The position numbers and the translations under genes were made by a program. The notes under the pieces are model-generated. The model was not told where the DNA came from and did not search any database. It saw only the letters and a list, made by a program, of their open reading frames with translations. A stretch of DNA of 35,207 bases from an uncultured Candidatus Saccharibacteria bacterium (GTDB lineage Bacteria > Patescibacteriota > Minisyncoccia > UBA6257 > 2-01-FULL-56-20): contig CAYHEU010000001.1 of assembly GCA_964355785.1 (NCBI GenBank), positions 1-35,207 of the forward strand, read 5' to 3'. Shown here one piece after another: positions 2,306 to 23,953 of the stretch (within the stretch, counting starts at the first letter, position 1; every line of letters starts with the position of its first letter).

Positions 2306-2554
2306 ATGTACACTGTATATATTCTTCAAGACAGCCGAGGAAAATTGTATAAAGGAATGACGAATAATCTGAAAAGAAGGTTGAAAGAACACCGAAGTGG
2401 ACACACGAAGACAACTTCACGTATGATCAATATCTCTGTGGTATATACCGAAACATTCAAGGAGTTAGGTTCGGCAAGAAAACGAGAGCTGTACCTTAAA
2501 TCCGCCGCCGGCAGAAGATTCTTGAAGAAGATACTGCAAGGGCCTATAGCTTAG
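2306..2554 (+). CDS. GIY-YIG nuclease-superfamily protein (short UPF0213-like, 82 aa)
   Basis: N-terminus YTVYILQDSRGKLYKGMTNNLKRRLKEH matches the GIY-(10-11)-YxG...R...E pattern. The ATG lies 4 nt after the tRNA-fragment homology ends. The last 5 codons and the stop (GPIA*) are encoded by the first 15 nt of the intact tRNA-Ala. Confidence 0.8.
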   Translation: MYTVYILQDSRGKLYKGMTNNLKRRLKEHRSGHTKTTSRMINISVVYTETFKELGSARKRELYLKSAAGRRFLKKILQGPIA

Positions 2555-2610
2555 TGGCAGAGCATCCGGTTTGCATCCGGAAGATGGGGGTTCGATTCCC
2601 CCTAGGTCCA
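2540..2610 (+). tRNA. tRNA-Ala (anticodon UGC)
   Basis: Acceptor GGGCCTA/TAGGTCC with G3:U70. D arm GCTT-AGTGGCA-GAGC. Anticodon stem TCCGG/CCGGA with loop TT-TGC-AT. T arm GGGGG-TTCGATT-CCCCC. Discriminator A, no encoded CCA. Confidence 0.9.
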
Positions 2611-2617
2611 CGAAAAA

Positions 2618-3241
2618 ATGCAAAAACGCGTTTTCATAATTCACGGTTGGGATAGCTCCCCTTACGACGCATGGATCCCATGGCTTTGGACGGAGCTCGA
2701 GAACCATGACTTCAAGGTGGAGGTTCCTCTAATGCCGAACGCACAGGCGCCGGAGATAGAAATCTGGGTGAGCCACTTGAAGAATCTCGTGGGCGATCCG
2801 GACGAAGAAACTTATTTCGTGGGACACAGCGTCGGATGCCAAGCCATTATTCGCTATCTCGAATCACTCGAGGAAGGAACGAAAGTCGGCGGCGCAGTTT
2901 TTGTGGGAGGGTGGTTCACCTTGAGCGGTGATGCAATGAAAACCGAGGAGGAAAAGGAAGTTGCCCTCCCGTGGCTCGAGACGCCAATTGATTTCGAGAA
3001 AGCGAAAAGAGTCACGACGAATTTCGCCGCAGTGCTTTCAGATAATGACCCCTATGTACCCCTCAAGGACAATAAAGAAATTTTTCAAGAAAAGTTCTCT
3101 GCCCGAGTGATCATCGAGCACAACAAGGGACATTTCAGCCGAGAAGACAACATTACCGAGCTTCCGATCACGCTCGATCTGCTTCTTGATATGGTATATC
3201 AAAAAGATAAATTAGGCGTGGATGAGGAAACTTCTTCTTAG
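2618..3241 (+). CDS. Alpha/beta serine hydrolase (YdeN/RBBP9-like Ser_hydrolase family)
   Basis: 207 aa. FIIHGWDSS, nucleophile elbow VGHSVGC, LSDNDPYVP and HNKGHF form a Ser-Asp-His arrangement typical of this family. The ATG is only 7 nt after the tRNA-Ala 3' end. Confidence 0.8.
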   Translation: MQKRVFIIHGWDSSPYDAWIPWLWTELENHDFKVEVPLMPNAQAPEIEIWVSHLKNLVGDPDEETYFVGHSVGCQAIIRYLESLEEGTKVGGAVFVGGWFTLSGDAMKTEEEKEVALPWLETPIDFEKAKRVTTNFAAVLSDNDPYVPLKDNKEIFQEKFSARVIIEHNKGHFSREDNITELPITLDLLLDMVYQKDKLGVDEETSS

Positions 3242-10818: not shown

Positions 10819-13800
10819 TTAAACCACGATATTTATCAAACGTTGAGGAACGTAGATCACGCGCTTCGGCTTTTTCCCCGCGAGAAACGCCGTTATTTTC
10901 TCTCTCCGAAGTGCGGTCTCTTTTGCATCAGATTCGGAAATATCCACATTGACCTCAACGCTGTCCCGAACCTTACCATTCACCTGAATTACCAACATAA
11001 ACTTTTCATCTTGAATAAGGCGTTCATCGTACGAAGGCCACGGCGAAATGTGGATTGAGTTCTTGTTTCCCAAAACATTTCTCCAAATCTCCTCGGTAAT
11101 GTGGGGCGCAAACGGGGCGAGGAGCTTGAGAAAATCTGAATAAGATTTTTTATCAGTCCCCTTTTCAAGTTCGGATAAAAGAATCATAAGCGAGCTTATT
11201 GCCGTATTGTAATGAAGATTTTCTATATCCTCGGTGATTTTCTTAATTGTTTTATGTACCAATCGCTCAATTTTCTTATTCGTGGCATTCGAGTTCATTT
11301 GGAGATTTGCATTGTGTTCTAATTTCCAAACCCGTTCCAAAAATCTCACCGGTCCCAAAATCCCCGCATCGCGGAAATCGCCGCCTTCCTCAAAGGGACC
11401 GATAAACATAAGATGCATACGGAGCGCATCTGCGCCAAATTTTTTGATGAACTCATCGGGGTTCACGATATTTCCCCGCGACTTTGAAATCTTTTTTCCT
11501 TCACGGATCAAAAGACCGTGCGCGCGAAATTTTTTTGCAGGTTCGTCTCCGCCCGAGGCGGATCCGCCTTTGGCGGAAAAAGGTAAAATCCCTAAGTCAC
11601 AAAGCGCTTTCCACATAAACCGGACGTAGAGAAGGTGGAGTACCGCGTGCTCCGCGCCGCCGATATACATATGAACCGGCAACCATTTTTTTATCCTGAG
11701 CTTGTCGAAGGGCGAATTCTTATCTTTTGGATCAAGATAGCGAAGATAGTACCACGCAGAATCAAGGAATGTGTCCGAAACGTCGGTTTCGCGAACCCCT
11801 TTTGCGCCACAGTGAGGACACTTCACCTCATAGAACGACCTTACCGTCGCAAGCGGCGATTTTCCCATGCCTTTCGGACGGAAATTTTTTACTTTCGGAA
11901 GTTCCACCGGCAAATCATTTTCTGGAACCGCATGCCAACCGGGCATATCATCCCTCTCGCCTCTTTTCTCCTTGGCACACGCCCCGCAGTAGATCATTGG
12001 AATCGGCGGCCCCCAATAGCGCTGGCGCGAGATCAACCAATCACGGAGGCGGTACTGGACCTTTTTTACTCCTCCGACATCACGCATCACCTTATCGCTA
12101 TCCACGAGCGGCGCATCGCTCGCGGGAAGCCCGAACATTTCCGCGAACTCCGCATCCCGCTCATCGTGCGCGGGGACGGCCATAATGGCGCCCGTGCCGT
12201 AACCCATAACCACATAATCAGCAACCCAGATGGGAATTTCTCGTTTTGTTCCGGGATTCATTGCCTCCACTCCTTTAAGCTCCACGCCTGTTTTCTTTCT
12301 TCCCTCGGCAATCCGCTCGTTTTCGGATTTCTTCTTTGCTCTTCTCACATATGCCTCAACTTCCCGAAGATTTAAGATCTGAGATTTTCCGCCCGAGGCG
12401 GATCCGCCTTTGGCGGAAAGATTTGAGATCAGTGGATGCTCTGGCGCAAGCACCACGTAGGTTGCGCCGTAGAGCGTGTCGGGACGCGTGGTGAAAACTT
12501 TTATTGTGGGCAACAGAGTATTTAATATAAGAGGTTCTTGCGCTCCTGTAAGATGCTCTTTATGTGCAAATCCTTCAATAAATTTAGTTTGTAATTTATC
12601 GCGCAAGTATTCTAAGTATGGACCTCGCTTATCTTTCTCCAGGGAATCGGAAATTATGGTTACAGAATTGCTCAATTTTTTCAGCAATTCGTAGTCATAT
12701 TCAAATGAAAAAGTTTTCCAAAATGGCCTCTCTTCGCCGGTACGAAAACGAGGCTCTACGGCTGGGGCAACAAGAACAAGCCCAGCGATGGGACGATTAA
12801 TCTTTTGCAATACTTTCATGGCTACTACTCCTCCTAAGCTATGACCAACGATAATAGTGTGCTCATTTATTCGGCAATTTTTAACAACATAATCAACTTG
12901 TTCCGATTCTACGGGATGATCAGTATTAGGCATTTGAGGTGCTTGGACACCAAAACCCTGTTGCTCCAGTTTCTCTTTTAACCACGGAATGAAGTTCTTA
13001 TTTACATGGCCAGTATAACCGTGGAGGATCAAAAAATTGGTATTTTTATTCAATACAACCGGAAAATCTATCTCCGTGCCTTCCGACTTCCCTATCCAGT
13101 TCCGCTGGGCAACTTTGATTCTCTCCGACCAATCAAGACCGTCCAGGTCTTTAATAAGGCGCTCGGCGTACTTGGTAATCCTGAAAAACCACTGTTCAAG
13201 CTCTTTTTTCTCCACGACAGAATCGCAGCGCTCGCATTTCCCGCCCGAACGACTGACGTCGCTCAGTCGGGCGGGCCCGCCAACAACCTGCTCGTCGGCT
13301 AAAACCGTGAGGCACGAGGGGCACCAGTTTACCGCCTGCTTTCTGCGGTAAGCCAGTCCGTTCTTGAACATTTGGGTGAAGATCCATTGCGTCCATTTGT
13401 AATACTTTGGATCAAAGGTTTCCAGATGCTCATTCCAAGCAAAACCATTGCCAATTTCACGGAGTTGGCGATAGAAGTTTTTCTCTGAAATTTTCGCTTG
13501 CTCGGCAGGATGCTTCTTTGTTTTCAATGCATAGTTTTCGGAGTGGATTCCAAAGCCATCAAGCCCGATCGGCTCGAAAACGTCATTCCCCTGCATCCGT
13601 TTCACGCGCCCATAGATATCGGATCCAACGAACGCATACATATTCCCGACATGGAGGCCCTCTGCCGATGGATATGGGAACATCATTAGGTTATAAAAAG
13701 GCGCAGCCTTTTTACCATGAGCCCGTCGAAGGGCAGAATGGTCACCTTGAGCGAAGGAGGGCTCATAAACCCCCTCTTTTAACCACTTGCTTTGCCAGTA

Positions 13801-13830
13801 TTTTTCTATCCTCTTAAAATCGTATTTCAT
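10819..13830 (-). CDS. leuS: Leucyl-tRNA synthetase with several in-frame insertions, including an alpha/beta-hydrolase domain
   Basis: Class I motifs: PYPSAEGLHVGN (HIGH-like) and KISKSRGN (KMSKS). Also NWCPSC…CERC Zn motif, NWIGKSEG, VFTTRPDT, YGTGAIMAVPAHDERD (CP1 editing domain) and RLRDWLISRQRYWG. Start placed at M18 (MKYDFKRIEKYWQ), which matches the conserved LeuRS N-terminus. The ORF itself extends up to 13881. Confidence 0.95.
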   Translation of the reverse strand: MKYDFKRIEKYWQSKWLKEGVYEPSFAQGDHSALRRAHGKKAAPFYNLMMFPYPSAEGLHVGNMYAFVGSDIYGRVKRMQGNDVFEPIGLDGFGIHSENYALKTKKHPAEQAKISEKNFYRQLREIGNGFAWNEHLETFDPKYYKWTQWIFTQMFKNGLAYRRKQAVNWCPSCLTVLADEQVVGGPARLSDVSRSGGKCERCDSVVEKKELEQWFFRITKYAERLIKDLDGLDWSERIKVAQRNWIGKSEGTEIDFPVVLNKNTNFLILHGYTGHVNKNFIPWLKEKLEQQGFGVQAPQMPNTDHPVESEQVDYVVKNCRINEHTIIVGHSLGGVVAMKVLQKINRPIAGLVLVAPAVEPRFRTGEERPFWKTFSFEYDYELLKKLSNSVTIISDSLEKDKRGPYLEYLRDKLQTKFIEGFAHKEHLTGAQEPLILNTLLPTIKVFTTRPDTLYGATYVVLAPEHPLISNLSAKGGSASGGKSQILNLREVEAYVRRAKKKSENERIAEGRKKTGVELKGVEAMNPGTKREIPIWVADYVVMGYGTGAIMAVPAHDERDAEFAEMFGLPASDAPLVDSDKVMRDVGGVKKVQYRLRDWLISRQRYWGPPIPMIYCGACAKEKRGERDDMPGWHAVPENDLPVELPKVKNFRPKGMGKSPLATVRSFYEVKCPHCGAKGVRETDVSDTFLDSAWYYLRYLDPKDKNSPFDKLRIKKWLPVHMYIGGAEHAVLHLLYVRFMWKALCDLGILPFSAKGGSASGGDEPAKKFRAHGLLIREGKKISKSRGNIVNPDEFIKKFGADALRMHLMFIGPFEEGGDFRDAGILGPVRFLERVWKLEHNANLQMNSNATNKKIERLVHKTIKKITEDIENLHYNTAISSLMILLSELEKGTDKKSYSDFLKLLAPFAPHITEEIWRNVLGNKNSIHISPWPSYDERLIQDEKFMLVIQVNGKVRDSVEVNVDISESDAKETALRREKITAFLAGKKPKRVIYVPQRLINIVV
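11548..11577 (-). repeat. Double-hairpin mini-element, family 2 (copy 2), in frame in leuS
   Basis: The sense strand TCCGCC-AAA-GGCGGA-TCCGCC-TCG-GGCGGA is exactly 10 codons (SAKGGSASGG) in phase. It is identical to 12388..12417. Confidence 0.85.
12388..12417 (-). repeat. Double-hairpin mini-element, family 2 (copy 1), in frame in leuS
   Basis: Same 30-mer (32 nt identical when flanks are included), encoding SAKGGSASGG at residues 489-498 of the ORF. Confidence 0.85.
13240..13275 (-). repeat. Structured palindromic mini-element, family 1, in frame in the leuS Zn-finger loop
   Basis: The sense strand CCCGCCCGAC-TGAGCGACGTCA-GTCGTTCGGGCGGG is exactly 12 codons (PARLSDVSRSGG, ORF codons 203-214). 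It sits between VVGG and KCERC. Same termini and same fold as 2257..2291. Confidence 0.85.
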
Positions 13831-13922
13831 TTTTTCTGCCTGCCCGCCGTAGTCCCGCAAAACGGAACGAAGGAGGGCCAATATTTTTCTATTTTTTGGA
13901 AGTTATAACTCTTCATTCAATA

Positions 13923-14324
13923 TTACAGGTTTCCTTTTTCTAGAAGTTCTCTTAAATAAATATCCACGCCCTGAAGTTTTTTTAAATCTTCTGGTTTAAA
14001 CCACTGGAATTCTGTATTTTCTTCGTTGAGCTTCACTACACCCTCCGCCTCCCCCAAGTACGTCAATCTCACAACGTGCCTACCCGAAACCCGCAAAATA
14101 TCTTGAGCAGCTATCAATTTTGGTTCTCCTGGAAGATCAAGGCCAACCTCCTCGCTAACTTCCCGTTTCAGGTTTTCCAATAAGGTTGAGCCGGGATTGA
14201 TACGCCCACCAGGAATGTCCCACACGCTACCAACCTCGGGATATTTATCCGAAGATCTCCGAACCATTAAGTATTTCCCCTCCTTGTCTCGTAATAGAAT
14301 TTTTACCCCGACCTGTAGTTCCAT
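13923..14324 (-). CDS. NUDIX hydrolase
   Basis: 133 aa with a Nudix box: GGRINPGSTLLENLKREVSEEVGL (GX5EX7REUXEEXGU pattern). Confidence 0.85.
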   Translation of the reverse strand: MELQVGVKILLRDKEGKYLMVRRSSDKYPEVGSVWDIPGGRINPGSTLLENLKREVSEEVGLDLPGEPKLIAAQDILRVSGRHVVRLTYLGEAEGVVKLNEENTEFQWFKPEDLKKLQGVDIYLRELLEKGNL

Positions 14325-15353: not shown

Positions 15354-15384
15354 GGAGTGGTGAAATTCACCGCTCCGCTTTTTT
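15354..15384 (+). terminator. Rho-independent terminator
   Basis: GGAGTGGTGAA / TTCACCGCTCC stem (one G-U pair) followed by GCTTTTTT. The U-tract overlaps the convergent tatD stop. Confidence 0.7.
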
Positions 15385-16213
15385 ACAAACCAAAAATCTG
15401 CTTCGCATTCTCAAAAATCCGCCTTTTCATCTCCTCCACCGAAACATTTTTAAGTTCCGCCAATTTTTTAACGACTTCAACCACATACGACGGTTCGTTG
15501 CGTTTACCACGATACGGAGCCGGAGATACGTATGGCGCATCGGTTTCGCTTAATATCCTATTCATAGGGAGCATCTTAATAACTTCGTCGTAATCGCGGG
15601 CGAATGTAATAACTCCGCCGAAAGTAAACAAAAATCCCATATCCAAAAGTGTTTTAGCGTCTTCTTTCGTACCGCTAAAGAAGTGAATGATGCCAGGATT
15701 GGGACGATTTAAGATTTTAGATTTAAGATTTAAGATTTCAATTAAATCCGCGAATGCCTGGCGACAATGGATCATCAACGGCTTCTTTACCTCGTTCGCA
15801 AGCTCAATTTGTTTTATAAATGTTTCGGCCTGTTTCTTCTTCGTTTCCTCGCCCAGACGGTAATAATCCAAACCACATTCCCCTATTGCCACAACCTTCG
15901 GGTCAGCGGCTAATTTTTTATAATAGTCGTAATCAAACGCTTCCCCGCGACTCGTAAATTCTTTCGCTTTATCGTCTGCGCCCAATTCTTTTATATCGTG
16001 ATAGGACTTCTCCGTATGAATTGGATGAAGCCCAATTGCAGCATAGACACCTTCTTTATACAAATTCGCAACCTCAACCGCTTTTTTTGAGGTATCTCTC
16101 TGCGTTCCGACATTCACTATCCAAACATTATTTCCGAGCGCACGGTCAATTACATCTTTCCGGTCCTCTTCGAATGCGGCAAACTGAACGTGGGTGTGGG
16201 CGTCAAAATACAT
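15383..16213 (-). CDS. tatD: TatD-family metal-dependent hydrolase/DNase
   Basis: 276 aa. MYFDAHTHVQF (HxH), IGECGLDY, LMIHCR, GIIHFFSG and SETDAPYV are canonical TatD motifs. Confidence 0.9.
   Translation of the reverse strand: MYFDAHTHVQFAAFEEDRKDVIDRALGNNVWIVNVGTQRDTSKKAVEVANLYKEGVYAAIGLHPIHTEKSYHDIKELGADDKAKEFTSRGEAFDYDYYKKLAADPKVVAIGECGLDYYRLGEETKKKQAETFIKQIELANEVKKPLMIHCRQAFADLIEILNLKSKILNRPNPGIIHFFSGTKEDAKTLLDMGFLFTFGGVITFARDYDEVIKMLPMNRILSETDAPYVSPAPYRGKRNEPSYVVEVVKKLAELKNVSVEEMKRRIFENAKQIFGL
15706..15740. repeat. Five tandem heptamers (GATTTAA-like) inside the tatD coding sequence
   Basis: GATTTAA GATTTTA GATTTAA GATTTAA GATTTCA, encoding …EILNLKSKILN… on the minus strand. Related to the TAGGATT arrays found at gene boundaries. 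Confidence 0.75.
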
Positions 16214-16222
16214 GCGAGAATA

Positions 16223-16248
16223 TAGGATTTAGGATTTAGGATTTAGGA
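16223..16248. repeat. Heptad-periodic stop array (TAGGATT x3-4) at the metG/tatD junction
   Basis: Plus-strand TAG at 16223, 16230, 16237 and 16244. Minus-strand TAA at 16229-31 (the metG stop), 16236-38 and 16243-45. Exact 7-nt period on both strands. Confidence 0.85.
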
Positions 16249-17683
16249 AACGGGGAAAAAGATTTTCACCCTTACTAACTTTTAAAATCTTACCTGACCA
16301 ATTGATATTTTTGGTTATCTTTTCTGAAGTTTCCGGCAGAAAGGGCCTAAGAAGCGCGGCGACGTTATCCAGCATTACGACCAAATTAAACACCGCCTCG
16401 CGATCGTTTGTTTCCCAGGGTTTTTTGGCGTTTACATATTCATCTCCAAAAGCGATAAAATCCCAAATTTTCCCGAGTGCCTCATGAAACTTAAATTCTG
16501 CTATTTTTTGTTCCACAGCACTTTTGGTTTCCGTGATTGTTTTCTCAACCTCCCCGGCAACCTTGGTCCCGCCGTCCAGATCTTCGTATTTCGAGGCTAA
16601 GGCCATAACGCGCGCGGCGAAATTGCCCAAACCATTGGCCAGATCGCCGTTATATCGTTCCTTAAACTTCGCCTCGGAAAAATCCCCGTCGTCAGCCGTC
16701 GGAATCTCGCGGAGCAAATAGTAACGGACTGCATCGACTCCGTATTTTTTAACCAGATCAAACGGATTAACAACATTACCGATCGTTTTCGACATTTTCT
16801 GCCCCTCTACCGTGACAAATCCGTGGACAAAAAGTTTTTTAGGAAGTTCGAGATTGGCCGCGAGAAGCATCGCGGGCCAAATTGCCCCATGAAATCTCAG
16901 TATGTCTTTTCCTATCACCTGCACGTCGGCAGGCCACCATTTTTTGTAGTCGTCGTTTCTCCCGTAGCCGATCGCCGAGAGATAATTCGTGAGCGCATCG
17001 CACCAGACATACATCACCTGGGCTTCATCCCCCGGAATGGGAATTCCCCACTCCAAACTCTTTTTCGATCGCGAAAAACTCACATCCTCAAGTCCGGCAT
17101 TGATGAGCGAGAGGATTTCGTTCTTTCGCCATTCCGGCACGATTTGGAACTCTCCGCTTTGTATCCGCCTCTTTATCTCGCCAGCGTAATCCGAAAGTTT
17201 GAAAAACCAATTCTCTTCTTCTATCACTTCCGGTTCGCGCTGGTGATCGGGGCACCTTCCGCCCACGAGCTCCTTTTCCGTAATGAACGCCTCGTGGCCC
17301 ACGCAGTACAATCCTTTGTATGTTCTCCTTTCAAGCTTCCCTGCTTTCTCGAGCGAGAGCCACATCGCTTGGGCGCCCGGCCAATGGCGCTCCTTATCTG
17401 TCGTGCGGATAAAATCGTCGAAAGAGAGGTTCAACGCTTCCTTGAATCCCCTGAACTTATCCGCGATCGCGTCCACAAATTCCTGCGGCTCTTTGCCCGC
17501 CGCCGCGGCGGCGCGCACAATTTTCGTTCCGTGCTCGTCAGTGCCGGTCAAAAATAAAACTTCGTCACCCTTCCCACGATGGAATCTCGCGAGCACGTCG
17601 GCCTGTATTTTTTCGAGCGCGTGCCCAATGTGGGGATCGGCGTTCGCATAATCAATTGCGGTCGTTATATAGAACTTTCCCAT
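16229..17683 (-). CDS. metG: Methionyl-tRNA synthetase (short form, no C-terminal tRNA-binding domain)
   Basis: MGKFYITTAIDYANADPHIGH (HIGH), KMSKTIGN (KMSKS) and WCDALTNY. Start placed at M30. The 29-codon upstream extension to 17770 overlaps the preceding gene. Confidence 0.95.
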   Translation of the reverse strand: MGKFYITTAIDYANADPHIGHALEKIQADVLARFHRGKGDEVLFLTGTDEHGTKIVRAAAAAGKEPQEFVDAIADKFRGFKEALNLSFDDFIRTTDKERHWPGAQAMWLSLEKAGKLERRTYKGLYCVGHEAFITEKELVGGRCPDHQREPEVIEEENWFFKLSDYAGEIKRRIQSGEFQIVPEWRKNEILSLINAGLEDVSFSRSKKSLEWGIPIPGDEAQVMYVWCDALTNYLSAIGYGRNDDYKKWWPADVQVIGKDILRFHGAIWPAMLLAANLELPKKLFVHGFVTVEGQKMSKTIGNVVNPFDLVKKYGVDAVRYYLLREIPTADDGDFSEAKFKERYNGDLANGLGNFAARVMALASKYEDLDGGTKVAGEVEKTITETKSAVEQKIAEFKFHEALGKIWDFIAFGDEYVNAKKPWETNDREAVFNLVVMLDNVAALLRPFLPETSEKITKNINWSGKILKVSKGENLFPRFLNPKS

Positions 17684-17687
17684 TTGT

Positions 17688-18716
17688 CTATGCAGCGGCC
17701 CCTTTCGGTCTTTTCTTGCTGGACCACTCCTCGATAACTTCTTGGAATACCGCCGCAGCGGGCACCGCAATAATCATCCCCAGGAAACCGGCGACCTCGA
17801 CACCGATTAAGAGCGCAATGATCACGATCACAGGATGGAGCCCCACCGAGCGGCGCGTCAGAATCGGTACCAAGAGATTGTTTTCAAGCTGTTGAATGCC
17901 CAGAAAAACAAAAAGAGTGTAGAGCGCAAGCGGCACCGAGGTGCTGAGCGCTACGAGGACCGCCGCTGCGCCCGCCAAAATAGGACCCACAAAAGGCACG
18001 ATTTCGAAAACTGCCGCAAGTACCGCGAGAAGGAAAGCGTGGTTAACGCGGAGCGCGACGAGTGCCACCCACACGACAAGCCCGACCACTAAACTCAAGA
18101 TAACCTGGGTCTGGAACCATCTCCCTATCTGTTTCTTTGATCGCTCGTATATGCGGAGCGCCGTCTCCTCGGAACTTGCGGGAAGAACCGCGCGGATGAA
18201 GCGTTCAATCCCGTCGCGGCTCAAAGTCAAATAAAATGAGCTTACAAAAACCGCGATCGCGAGCCCCAGCCCTCCCAAAACCTGTGAGAATATGCCGAAG
18301 GGAGAAACTCCCGCGCTCTTCGAGAAAAGATTCGTCGAAATCGTGCTCACGAGGTTATTGATCGACTCAAGAACTTTTGTGTTCACGATCGGCCCAATAC
18401 CAAGATCTTTCGCAGATTGATTAAAACTTACCATCACGCTGTTCACTTCGGTGATAAGCAGGGGAACGATCGTGTAGAGAAAAAGTATAAGAAAGAGAAT
18501 TATAAGGAGGAAAACGAGGATGACGCCGAGCGATCGAGGAAGGCCACGCCGCTCGAAAAAGTTGACGAGCGTATCCAAGCCAGTAGAAATCACGATCGCA
18601 AGGAAAAGGCCGAGTAAGACCTGCCGGCCGAGGAACATAAAAAGGACGAGTAAAAAGAAGAAAAAGGCCCGCCAGAGCGTCTGCCACGAAATTTCAACGT
18701 TGATTTTGTCCTTCAT
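17688..18716 (-). CDS. AI-2E family transporter (PerM/UPF0118-like permease)
   Basis: 342 aa, multi-TM. …IVPFVGPILAGAAAVLVAL… and …GLHPVIVIIALLIGVEVAGFLGMIIAVP… are typical of the family. 4-nt overlap with the upstream M16 gene. Confidence 0.85.
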   Translation of the reverse strand: MKDKINVEISWQTLWRAFFFFLLVLFMFLGRQVLLGLFLAIVISTGLDTLVNFFERRGLPRSLGVILVFLLIILFLILFLYTIVPLLITEVNSVMVSFNQSAKDLGIGPIVNTKVLESINNLVSTISTNLFSKSAGVSPFGIFSQVLGGLGLAIAVFVSSFYLTLSRDGIERFIRAVLPASSEETALRIYERSKKQIGRWFQTQVILSLVVGLVVWVALVALRVNHAFLLAVLAAVFEIVPFVGPILAGAAAVLVALSTSVPLALYTLFVFLGIQQLENNLLVPILTRRSVGLHPVIVIIALLIGVEVAGFLGMIIAVPAAAVFQEVIEEWSSKKRPKGAAA

Positions 18717-22162: not shown

Positions 22163-22234
22163 TAGAGAGTAGCTTGTAGCCAGTAGTGAGTAGGAAGAAC
22201 TTTTGATTTTCTACTTACTACTCTCTACTTTCTA
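22163..22234. repeat. Cargo-less inverted pair of heptad TAG arrays
   Basis: Left arm has plus-strand TAG at 22163, 22170, 22177, 22184 and 22191. Right arm has plus-strand CTA (minus-strand TAG) at 22211, 22218, 22225 and 22232, the last being the thyX-like stop. About 17-nt spacer. The reverse complement of the right arm, GCGAGTAGAAAGTAG, is identical to 15 nt of the left arm at about 9473-9487. Confidence 0.85.
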
Positions 22235-23953
22235 CTCGCTTTTGTTTGGAGAACTTTCCCCTACCCCCTGCCTCTTTTTCGCAAGTTTCTCGACAATATC
22301 CTTTTCTTTCTCGGAGATTTTCTCTTCTGTGCCGCGCCGCGCAATTGCGTAGTCGTTCATGTCCACAAGCATGAAACTCGCAAGAAGCGGAAATTTTTCT
22401 TTCACCAACCGATACTTTTCCTGCTCAATAAACCGGTAGTCGGGATGTCCTTGGGAAATGGTGCGAAGCTCTGTTTCCCAAAAAAGCTGACGGAAGTTCT
22501 TCCATTGATAAAATCGGAGGCGATACGCGAGCGGTACGACGTACTGCGCAAGAACCGGATCTTTCTCTTCGATCTTTCTGAAAAATGCGCTCGCTCCTTC
22601 CAAAGCTTCCCGGAATTGGCCCTCAAGGCCCGCCTCGGGGATTTCCGGCGGGACATCATAGCCATGGTGAGTCGAGAAGTATTCGCGATCCTGCGTCATC
22701 ATCCGGTGGCGGTGGAGATCTCGATAACTCCCGATATTCATCGTAATCTCAAAACGCAGGTATGAATTCTCAAACGCACGTCCGACTTTGTGCCAGCGCG
22801 CCGAACGATTCAAAAGATAGAAGCTTATTATTTCTTTTCGCTCCGATCCGGAAAGTTCTCTTGCGATCTGAAGCACTCTTTCCCATGTTGCGTGGGTGGC
22901 GGGAAAAATTATTCCCGCAATAATTTTTTCCTCCGCACGCGGGTCGCACTCCACGAGTTTCACCTCGGGCTTCGTCCCTCCTTTTTCGAGCAATTTCCCC
23001 TCTTCCGCATGCCGGGAGCTTTGGAGAAAACGGTGAACGGCCGCGCTCCGTTCGGCAAGATACCGCTGATATCCCTCCGATTTCTCGTCCCCAAGCCGCA
23101 AAAGAAGCGAAGGAATCTCGTTATCCAGTTCTCGCTTCACGGCGGAGGAAATCCACCGGAGTTCTCCCAAGGAATGCTTTGCGGTGCGATTAATCAAATA
23201 TTCGAGGGCCTGCGCATTCCCCCGGAACGCAACCTGCCCCAAGGTCGCCATAGGAAGAAGCCCCCGAAGGGTGTCGAACGCTTTTTTCTCCAAGACGGAT
23301 TCTTTTTCCTCGTAATTCTCCTTAAGCCACGCGAGAAGCCGCGGCAGGAGCTCCACGTAGGTATCAAAAAGATGGTCTAGCGTTTTCCGATACTCAGGAA
23401 GGATTCCGAGGCGTTCAAGATCCGGCTTCGGAATATAGTAGAGATAGCGATCCCTAATTTTCTTCCCAAAATTTACGTAGCGCGTGGATTTCTCGATCGG
23501 TTCGAGCCCAATCCGCTGATCCTCAACGAATTTCATCGCAACCTGCGAAATCCCCCAGAAGAGCACGTGCGTGCCCGTCATCTGGGCAATAGAGTCGTCG
23601 CCGTACTGGGAGAGCCACTTTGCATAAAATTCCTGCGCGCGCTGATTATTCAAGATATTTTTAAATCCCCGTTCGCGGAGAAAACTCACCGTCTCCTCGA
23701 GTTCTTTCGCGAGCGCTTTGTTTTCGCCCTCAAGGATCGGATAGAAATATTCCTTGAGAAGCACGCGGAGGAGCGAGTGCGGCGCACGGCTCGCGCGCGA
23801 ACAGAGCGCCCCTACGATCTCCGGCGGCAGGTTCCGAAGCACGTGCACGAGGCCGTCCACGTTTGTTGCGAACGGCTCCAAAAGGAATTTATCTTTTTCC
23901 GACCATTCTTCCCCGGGAAAATCGGGCGCGTACGCGTCTCTACTCTCCGGCAT
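22232..23953 (-). CDS. Long ThyX-like (FAD-dependent thymidylate synthase family) protein
   Basis: 573 aa. …GALCSRASRAP… and …YRDLHRHRMMTQ… resemble ThyX signatures. It is about twice the canonical length, and the RHR-x7-S serine is not at the canonical spacing. Confidence 0.6.
   Translation of the reverse strand: MPESRDAYAPDFPGEEWSEKDKFLLEPFATNVDGLVHVLRNLPPEIVGALCSRASRAPHSLLRVLLKEYFYPILEGENKALAKELEETVSFLRERGFKNILNNQRAQEFYAKWLSQYGDDSIAQMTGTHVLFWGISQVAMKFVEDQRIGLEPIEKSTRYVNFGKKIRDRYLYYIPKPDLERLGILPEYRKTLDHLFDTYVELLPRLLAWLKENYEEKESVLEKKAFDTLRGLLPMATLGQVAFRGNAQALEYLINRTAKHSLGELRWISSAVKRELDNEIPSLLLRLGDEKSEGYQRYLAERSAAVHRFLQSSRHAEEGKLLEKGGTKPEVKLVECDPRAEEKIIAGIIFPATHATWERVLQIARELSGSERKEIISFYLLNRSARWHKVGRAFENSYLRFEITMNIGSYRDLHRHRMMTQDREYFSTHHGYDVPPEIPEAGLEGQFREALEGASAFFRKIEEKDPVLAQYVVPLAYRLRFYQWKNFRQLFWETELRTISQGHPDYRFIEQEKYRLVKEKFPLLASFMLVDMNDYAIARRGTEEKISEKEKDIVEKLAKKRQGVGESSPNKSE

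Follow-up and report, generated by a model that had tools for sequence, protein, structure and literature searches.

A YdeN/RBBP9-type serine hydrolase nested at the entry of the CP1 editing domain of leucyl-tRNA synthetase in Patescibacteria

The subject of this study is leuS, the gene for a bacterial-type leucyl-tRNA synthetase (LeuRS) at 10819..13830 on the minus strand of a 35,207-nucleotide stretch of DNA from an uncultured Candidatus Saccharibacteria bacterium (GenBank assembly GCA_964355785.1, contig CAYHEU010000001.1), which we refer to as the window. The encoded protein carries a YdeN/RBBP9-type serine hydrolase (12517..13056, minus strand; residues 276-455) that, in structure models, is nested as an independently folding domain in the beta-hairpin leading to the CP1 editing domain. 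The catalytic triad is invariant in related inserts, and the closest free-standing relatives of the domain are mostly encoded beside LeuRS genes. We propose, tentatively, that the insert may assist LeuRS as an accessory hydrolase of aminoacyl esters.

RESULTS

A complete serine hydrolase domain lies in the hairpin leading to CP1

The region 12517-13056 on the minus strand reads without a stop codon as 180 residues, from VLNKNTNFLILHG to EPLILNT, and is flanked by NWIGKSEGTEIDF and KVFTTRPDT. An initial annotation, made from the letters of the DNA alone, had noted about 180 extra codons at the entry of CP1, and comparison with Thermus thermophilus LeuRS bears this out: six residues (237-242) separate the two strands in the Thermus enzyme, whereas 184 separate them in the window LeuRS. 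The upstream junction strand NWIGKSEGTEIDF (13057..13095, minus strand; residues 263-275), the N-terminal beta-strand into CP1, aligns with Thermus LeuRS through residue 236, and a strand is predicted at residues 265-276. The downstream junction LLPTIKVFTTRPDT (12475..12516, minus strand; residues 456-469), which includes the threonine-rich editing motif, aligns with Thermus LeuRS from residue 243 on. The distance between the NWIGK and TTRPDT motifs is likewise 203 residues in the window LeuRS, compared with 25 in relatives lacking the insert. We refer to this CP1-entry position, the one occupied in the window, as site A.

Searched against Pfam, the 180-residue insert matched Ser_hydrolase (PF06821) with an E value of 2.2e-10 and 41.2 bits, against a gathering cut-off of 22, and four generic alpha/beta-hydrolase families also exceeded their own cut-offs. 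The best stretch of the PF06821 match covers profile positions 1-93 of 172 in the window insert, while matches to other site-A inserts reach positions 148-154. An AlphaFold model of the isolated insert, for which 13 homologues served as input, had a mean predicted local distance difference test score (pLDDT) of 87 and a predicted template modeling score (pTM) of 0.86. The best Foldseek matches to this model in the PDB were YdeN (1uxo; template modeling [TM] score, 0.81) and RBBP9 (2qs9, 7oex, and 9fcr; TM scores, 0.80 to 0.81), with E values of about 1e-11 to 1e-9 for the top matches. The model and these matches show the minimal alpha/beta-hydrolase fold of about 180 residues that characterizes PF06821, and the insert has every feature of that family that can be examined by sequence or predicted fold. 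The identification of a complete serine alpha/beta hydrolase of the YdeN/RBBP9 family in the initial annotation was thus upheld by both profile and structure comparisons. In the model of the full-length protein, the insert had pLDDT values of 80 to 97 and was joined by linkers of only about 3 to 5 residues to the strands at residues 265-276 and 459-464, which is the geometry expected of a domain implanted in a hairpin. These models indicate that the insert is an independently folding YdeN/RBBP9-type hydrolase nested in the beta-hairpin leading to the CP1 editing domain.

The catalytic triad of the insert is invariant

We aligned 171 related hydrolase domains, 108 of them from LeuRS site A. The predicted nucleophile, Ser348 (codon at 12838..12840, minus strand) in the GHSLGG elbow, is serine in all 108 site-A inserts and aligns with Ser75 of RBBP9. 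The predicted acid of the triad is Glu415 in the motif SLEKD (12637..12639, minus strand), which aligns with RBBP9 Asp138; this column is acidic in every site-A insert (87 have Asp and 21 have Glu). The initial annotation had pointed to an IISDS motif for the acid, an assignment that gives way to Glu415 in this alignment. The predicted histidine, His443 (12553..12555, minus strand), is the second His of HKEH, is conserved in 108/108 inserts, and aligns with RBBP9 His165. The insert therefore has a complete Ser (GxSxG)/Asp/His-type triad (S348, E415, and H443), the acid position accepting Asp or Glu. Mean pairwise identity was only 41.5% among the inserts, compared with 64% for the host parts. 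The invariance of the triad despite this divergence indicates selection for catalysis.

The host protein is an otherwise complete bacterial LeuRS

The leuS open reading frame (ORF), 10819..13881 on the minus strand, encodes a LeuRS of 1,020 codons and is open as far as a TTG at 13881. The true start is probably the ATG at 13830, corresponding to M18 of the ORF, because homologues begin at the equivalent of KYDFxKIEKKWQ and the first 16 residues are predicted to be disordered. The insert notwithstanding, the protein scored 802.9 bits against the NCBIfam model TIGR00396 (leuS_bact), compared with an equivalog cut-off of 548.4. The AlphaFold model of the full-length protein had a pLDDT of 82.9 and a pTM of 0.76, and its non-insert part matched bacterial LeuRS structures with TMt values of 0.74 to 0.83. 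Pfam assigned residues 29-256 to tRNA-synt_1 and residues 457-588 to the editing domain PF13603 (E = 6.7e-46).

Conservation was assessed in an alignment of 66 LeuRS relatives, 48 carrying the insert and 18 without it (alignment A3). Both class I signatures are present and conserved in these relatives: the HIGH-type motif HVGN of the synthetic site (13642..13653, minus strand; residues 77-80), in which H77 is nearly invariant, and the KMSKS-type motif KISKS (11479..11493, minus strand; residues 797-801), in which K797, S799, K800, and S801 are invariant. The CP1 editing domain proper, with GTGAIMAVPAHDERD, lies at 12007..12516 on the minus strand (residues 456 to approximately 625; PF13603). 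It contains the threonine-rich motif TTRPDT at residues 464-469 and the motif AHDERD at 12154-12171 (residues 571-576), with the conserved aspartate equivalent to D345 of Escherichia coli LeuRS. Residues T464, R466, T469, D573, R575, and D576 are invariant in all 66 relatives, insert bearing or not, and the initial annotation was right about the intact frame and CP1 motifs. On the strength of these motifs, the host is an otherwise complete bacterial LeuRS for which leucylation and editing activity can be predicted.

The C-terminal part of CP1 is trimmed in this protein. The match to PF13603 ends at profile position 137 of 185, and the distance from AHDERD to RDW (12007-12171; residues 571-625) is 41 residues, compared with 72 to 90 in most relatives. 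Eight of the 120 closest LeuRS proteins, the window LeuRS counted among them, have this trimmed form.

The leuS gene also contains short palindromes that look like small in-frame palindromic insertion elements. A 33-nucleotide, GC-rich twin-hairpin repeat is present in two copies (12388-12420 and 11548-11580), both in frame and found only inside leuS; each encodes SAKGGSASGG (residues 490-499 and 770-779, respectively), and both peptide stretches are predicted to be disordered. The same peptide is present in the LeuRS relatives P0028, P0029, P0121, and P0045, apparently, to judge from protein position, at the second window site. A third palindrome, at 13240-13275, encodes GGPARLSDVSRSGG (residues 201-214). 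In a valyl-tRNA synthetase (ValRS; P0182), SPPTPLTEGGVE or a near copy of it is inserted three times (residues 253-272, 450-466, and 979-995), in a manner resembling the repeated SAKGGSASGG insertions of the window LeuRS.

The LeuRS-hydrolase architecture is old and widespread

Scanning one genome per species, we found 22 loci in which a hydrolase is collinear with leuS and inserted at the same site. By their record titles these belong to Saccharibacteria, Kaiserbacteria, Kerfeldbacteria, Curtissbacteria, Uhrbacteria, Taylorbacteria, and others, and all 22 leuS ORFs are uninterrupted, with lengths of 822 to 1,735 codons. In the protein collection, 90 of the 120 best LeuRS matches carry a site-A hydrolase in frame; the insert-bearing proteins among these 120 are 50 to 65% identical to the window protein, and those that are named come from Liptonbacteria, Sungbacteria, and Paceibacterota. 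Across assemblies from NCBI, JGI, ENA, and Logan, the distinct proteins with this architecture number more than 100. The LeuRS-hydrolase architecture is therefore old and widespread in Patescibacteria.

The insert is AT-rich relative to the flanking leuS DNA, as the initial annotation had noted, with a GC content of 38.5% compared with 49.2% for the rest of leuS and a third-codon-position GC content (GC3) of 32% compared with 55%. Only 0.5% of the 540-nucleotide segments of the window are equally AT-rich, and the best low-GC3 segment, codons 309-455, ends exactly at the insert border. Insert GC3 was also lower than host leuS GC3 in 21 of the 22 other genomes (L001 to L022), with a mean difference of -0.10 and values down to -0.30. 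Since the deficit is systematic across genomes, AT-richness is no proof of recent capture here; weaker constraint and a shared low-GC gene pool are candidate causes.

Inserts look to have been exchanged between distant leuS genes

Similarity between inserts does not follow similarity between hosts. Four hosts (L001 to L004) are only 44 to 48% identical to the window LeuRS, yet their inserts are 61 to 66% identical to the window insert, while many hosts that are 60 to 66% identical to the window LeuRS carry inserts that are only 30 to 37% identical. Over 112 proteins, host identity and insert identity to the window were negatively correlated (Spearman coefficient, -0.32). The neighbor-joining tree of the hosts is star-like, with all relatives 66 to 70% identical to the window LeuRS; on this poorly resolved tree, the presence and absence of the insert in 66 taxa required at least 11 changes by a rough count, and the Glu-type insert is scattered over it. 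The mismatch in similarity and the scattered distribution point to exchange of cassettes between leuS genes. Judged by sequence comparison, the window insert looks like a member of a cassette type that has passed between distant leuS genes, with recombination in the conserved flanks as the presumed route; no target-site duplications were seen in the junction DNA at the insert borders. The view in the initial annotation that the domain could be a recently captured passenger is thus only partly sustained: the architecture is old and widespread, but the cassette itself does look to have moved between distant leuS genes.

The window also contains a free-standing Ser_hydrolase gene (2618..3241, plus strand; PF06821, E = 1.6e-20), of which the insert had been suggested to be a paralog. 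The two proteins share 32% identity across 93 amino acids, or half of the domain. The resident protein belongs to a different subgroup, with the free-standing proteins P0015, P0013, and P0014 as its nearest neighbors, and other free-standing proteins are closer to the insert, at 42 to 45% identity. We therefore rejected a recent duplication of the resident gene, which is not the donor of the insert. The resident gene begins 7 nucleotides past a tRNA-Ala(TGC) gene (region 2540-3241, plus strand).

Most free-standing members of the insert-like subgroup lie beside or close to leuS

Several free-standing proteins of about 180 amino acids group with the LeuRS inserts, at 45 to 57% identity, and apart from other free-standing hydrolases. 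We examined the gene neighborhoods of ten free-standing hydrolases of this insert-like subgroup. Six of them (L023, P0172, P0160, P0177, P0189, and P0207) lie directly upstream of a LeuRS gene on the same strand, with gaps of 0 to 36 nucleotides; the neighbor of P0207 is a 957-amino-acid class I synthetase whose assignment as LeuRS is tentative and rests on weak similarity of a truncated copy. In a further case (P0168; L050:3501-7549), two Ser_hydrolase genes are followed by genes for a YbaK-like tRNA_edit deacylase, Ham1, and an archaeal-type LeuRS, in an operon whose genes overlap or abut, and P0178 (L052) lies 1.4 kb away from leuS. For the remaining two, P0148 and P0155, one of which is on a 3-kb contig, no synthetase was found nearby. 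None of three controls from outside the subgroup (P0005, P0014, and the window gene at 2618-3241) adjoins a synthetase. The linkage of eight of ten genes to a LeuRS gene, although the cases are not phylogenetically independent, is far from what would be expected of random gene order.

The locus L053:1036-4558 is syntenic with the window and contains, in order, TatD, a small ORF, a free-standing hydrolase, and leuS. The genes adjacent to leuS and the synteny of L053 indicate that the subgroup exists in two interchangeable states, as a separate upstream gene and as a domain inside LeuRS. In the L053 LeuRS the threonine-rich editing motif is degenerate, with SYDSVPQT in place of FTTRPDT; among LeuRS genes beside free-standing hydrolases this was seen only in L053. 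The possibility that the hydrolase replaces a degenerate CP1 was rejected for the inserted forms, in which the editing residues are as invariant as in the forms without an insert. In the window, genes for TatD (15383-16213) and methionyl-tRNA synthetase (16229-17770) lie upstream of leuS on the same strand.

Other insertion sites, guest domains, and hosts

Closely or distantly related hydrolases are found at three further positions of LeuRS besides site A: between AHDxRD and RDWxxSRQR, about 25 residues past RDWxxSRQRYWG within a zinc knuckle, and near residue 854 (window numbering). Closely related hydrolases are also nested in further large housekeeping proteins, namely ValRS (P0182), alanyl-tRNA synthetase (AlaRS; P0169), UvrA (P0190), and the GTPase Der/EngA (P0257). 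Conversely, the site-A loop of other LeuRS relatives (P0107, P0109, P0219, P0151, and P0186) holds other guests: a Ham1/ITPase domain, an IS200-type Y1 transposase domain, or the hydrolase together with a NUDIX or a GNAT domain. In relatives, the site between AHDxRD and RDW is very often occupied by a NUDIX domain. NUDIX and Ser_hydrolase domains are fused in P0231 and P0249 and encoded by adjacent genes at L038.

Several insertions can occur in one gene. A LeuRS fragment from Kerfeldbacteria (L005:1-2466) carries three guest domains, with hydrolases at the first and third sites and a NUDIX domain between them at the second, and the 1,735-codon leuS ORF of a member of the Taylorbacteria (L022:2156-7360) carries several further insertions. 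Directly upstream of leuS, the window has a free-standing NUDIX hydrolase gene (13923..14324, minus strand; PF00293, E = 1.5e-19); it was rejected as the counterpart of the LeuRS-embedded NUDIX domains, as the similarity is weak.

One further gene of the window has an unusual length. A ThyX-like ORF (22232-23953, minus strand) encodes 573 amino acids, while ThyX proteins usually have about 220 to 250, and Thy1 is best matched only at residues 374-522, in two stretches. A duplication or an N-terminal addition may account for its length.

DISCUSSION

A possible accessory aminoacyl-ester hydrolase

In an aminoacyl-tRNA the amino acid is esterified to a ribose and keeps its alpha-amine free, and valacyclovir is the L-valyl ester of a nucleoside analogue. 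Isoleucine, methionine, and norvaline are the classical mischarging problems of LeuRS. RBBP9 is the only member of the YdeN/RBBP9 family with a defined substrate class: it forms acyl-enzymes with single Leu/Ile, Met, Phe, Tyr, and Trp residues, its activity requires a free alpha-amine, which is anchored by Glu108, and the authors of that work consider that the bonds it cleaves may be amides, esters, or thioesters (PMC8866121). RBBP9 has also been identified as a valacyclovir-activating enzyme, as stated in the title of a paper cited in PMC7730578. LeuRS itself converts homocysteine into a reactive thiolactone (PMC5370406).

We propose that the insert is an accessory aminoacyl-ester hydrolase working with LeuRS, a reading to which we give a little less than an even chance. 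It is drawn by analogy from the chemistry of RBBP9, taken together with the linkage to leuS and the YbaK-like neighbor. The inserted form would partner LeuRS in cis, and the form encoded by a neighboring gene would do so in trans. The likeliest substrates would be hydrophobic amino acids with a free alpha-amine in aminoacyl ester (or thioester or amide) linkage; candidates include mis-acylated tRNA(Leu) and other aminoacyl by-products of LeuRS that CP1 leaves uncleared. The invariance of the editing residues in proteins with and without the insert suggests that the hydrolase would add to CP1 editing and not substitute for it. It would thereby join a set of "housecleaning" domains (NUDIX, Ham1, and YbaK-like) that are attached to LeuRS or encoded beside it. 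The initial annotation had raised an action on aminoacyl esters, and the chemistry of RBBP9 and the free-standing relatives beside leuS lend that idea indirect support.

Several observations weigh against this proposal. With an intact CP1 editing site, a second deacylase is not obviously needed. The acidic-Arg pair E384-R385 of the insert does align with the amine anchor E108-R109 of RBBP9, which would favor the proposal, but the alignment of this loop is uncertain. Two of the ten free-standing relatives are away from leuS, UvrA and Der also host the same hydrolase, and the host search was seeded with the LeuRS insert and is thus biased towards LeuRS hosts. Finally, unrelated guests (GNAT, IS200-type transposase, Ham1, and NUDIX) occupy the same LeuRS loop.

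A passenger enzyme or an amino-acid supplier

The variety of guests is consistent with permissive loops that carry passengers, and the main rival to an accessory hydrolase, though we think it less likely than not, is that the insert is a housekeeping esterase or aminopeptidase that acts autonomously and plays no part in leucylation. CP1 surface loops would tolerate it, and riding in an essential, constitutively expressed gene or operon would secure its expression and prevent its loss. The presence of the domain in UvrA and Der, the Ham1, GNAT, NUDIX, and transposase guests of the same loop, the faster evolution of the insert than of its host, the frequent gains and losses on the host tree, and the swapping of cassettes between hosts are all in line with such a passenger. 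It accounts less readily for the linkage of most free-standing subgroup genes to LeuRS genes, one of the archaeal type included, when no control outside the subgroup was so placed. Nor would it lead one to expect that at least four independent LeuRS sites, as well as ValRS and AlaRS, have been colonized, or that one operon also carries a YbaK-like aminoacyl-tRNA deacylase.

Amino-acid biosynthesis is generally lacking in Patescibacteria, and an unlikely further possibility is that the hydrolase, as an RBBP9-like aminopeptidase, frees N-terminal leucine and other hydrophobic residues from scavenged peptides to feed LeuRS. The linked synthetases (LeuRS, ValRS, and AlaRS) all charge hydrophobic amino acids, and RBBP9, itself an aminopeptidase, traps Leu/Ile, Met, and aromatic residues (PMC8866121). 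However, such a supply function leaves the association with NUDIX, Ham1, and the YbaK-like deacylase unexplained, and free leucine diffuses, so that tethering would bring little obvious benefit. In addition, in the alignment with RBBP9, the pocket residues responsible for the aromatic preference of that enzyme (Y99, L103, F140, and L141) are not conserved in the window insert.

Selfish elements and artefacts

The nesting of the insert in an essential gene, its movement between hosts, and the presence of a gene of the same family in the window could also suggest an intein-type selfish element that is excised posttranslationally, or a recent duplication of the gene at 2618-3241. Both are very improbable. 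A Pfam scan of the full protein revealed no Hint, intein, or homing-endonuclease domain, and the junctions IDF|PVVLN and PTIK|VFTT lack the Cys/Ser/Thr and His-Asn signature of splicing; neither the fold nor the splice residues of an intein are thus present, and the conserved feature is instead an esterase triad. Against a duplication stand the limited similarity of the resident gene, its different subgroup, and the closer free-standing proteins described above. An assembly chimera or sequencing artefact that fused a hydrolase gene into leuS, which the abrupt change in composition across the insert might suggest, is of negligible likelihood and was rejected, as the identical in-frame architecture recurs in independent genome assemblies from 22 species and in over 100 distinct proteins, the junctions coincide exactly with conserved LeuRS strands, and the GC3 deficit is shared by nearly all of the other genomes.

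Comparison with known systems

The insert shares with YdeN of Bacillus subtilis (1UXO) and human RBBP9 (2QS9 and 7OEX) the fold, the size of about 180 amino acids, the Ser-Asp/Glu-His triad, and the HG motif. It differs in that known family members are free-standing, whereas the window domain is nested in another enzyme; it has Glu and not Asp as the acid of the triad, its sequence is only about 19 to 22% identical to the solved structures, and it has not retained the aromatic cage of RBBP9. The host has the same domain order, HIGH, KMSKS, and editing motifs as the canonical LeuRS enzymes of E. coli (4AQ7 and 4ARC) and T. thermophilus (2BYT and 2BTE), but a whole hydrolase takes the place of the six-residue turn, and the C-terminal part of CP1 is shorter than in most relatives.

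Trans-editing deacylases (YbaK/ProX [PF04073], AlaX, and D-Tyr-tRNA deacylase [DTD]) resemble the insert in its proposed hydrolysis of aminoacyl esters beside a synthetase, and one operon combines two hydrolase genes of this type with a YbaK-like gene and a LeuRS gene. Their fold and chemistry are unrelated, as a covalent serine-hydrolase mechanism is predicted for the insert. The insert matched none of YbaK/ProX (PF04073), AlaX/tRNA_SAD, or DTD in Pfam, and the 50 Foldseek matches listed were all alpha/beta hydrolases. LeuRS is not known to have a trans-editing factor. A class I synthetase with an extra enzyme domain has been catalogued in the isoleucyl-tRNA synthetase with an N-acetyltransferase domain (NCBIfam NF040702, ileS_w_GNAT), in which both the host enzyme and the guest domain are different; NCBIfam has no model for a LeuRS with a hydrolase, and the insert alone matched no hydrolase family there. 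Inteins are similar in their nesting in essential genes, patchy distribution, and exchange between hosts, but the LeuRS insert has no splicing motifs or Hint domain, and its guest is a conserved esterase that is presumably kept in the mature protein.

The initial annotation took the architecture to be undescribed. This holds for the literature, in which a full-text search found no description of a hydrolase in LeuRS, but public databases already contain hundreds of sequences with this architecture. Names given to some of them are "alpha/beta fold hydrolase" (NCBI) and [quoted passage not shown]; the former name on LeuRS proteins calls for caution in annotation pipelines.

Implications

In the LeuRS of Patescibacteria, the loops around CP1 serve as hot spots where enzyme cassettes (serine hydrolase, NUDIX, Ham1, and GNAT) can be exchanged, an unusual mode of protein evolution for organisms with tiny genomes. 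Synthetase proofreading is thought to rely on a small, well-known set of editing folds, and a conserved esterase with a complete triad, in or beside LeuRS across a bacterial superphylum, suggests an unstudied layer of quality control or by-product clearance. More speculatively, and we consider this unlikely though worth stating, LeuRS-linked YdeN/RBBP9-type hydrolases could be an unrecognized class of proofreading factors for aminoacyl esters or aminoacyl-tRNA, built on an alpha/beta-hydrolase fold, using a covalent serine mechanism, and dedicated to LeuRS in cis or in trans. If so, they would belong, with NUDIX, Ham1, and YbaK-like enzymes, to a "quality-control supermodule" specific to Patescibacteria, and would bring to light the ancestral biochemical function of the orphan YdeN/RBBP9 family. 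Even in humans the physiological role of that family is unsettled, and the association with LeuRS offers it a testable partner and substrate class.

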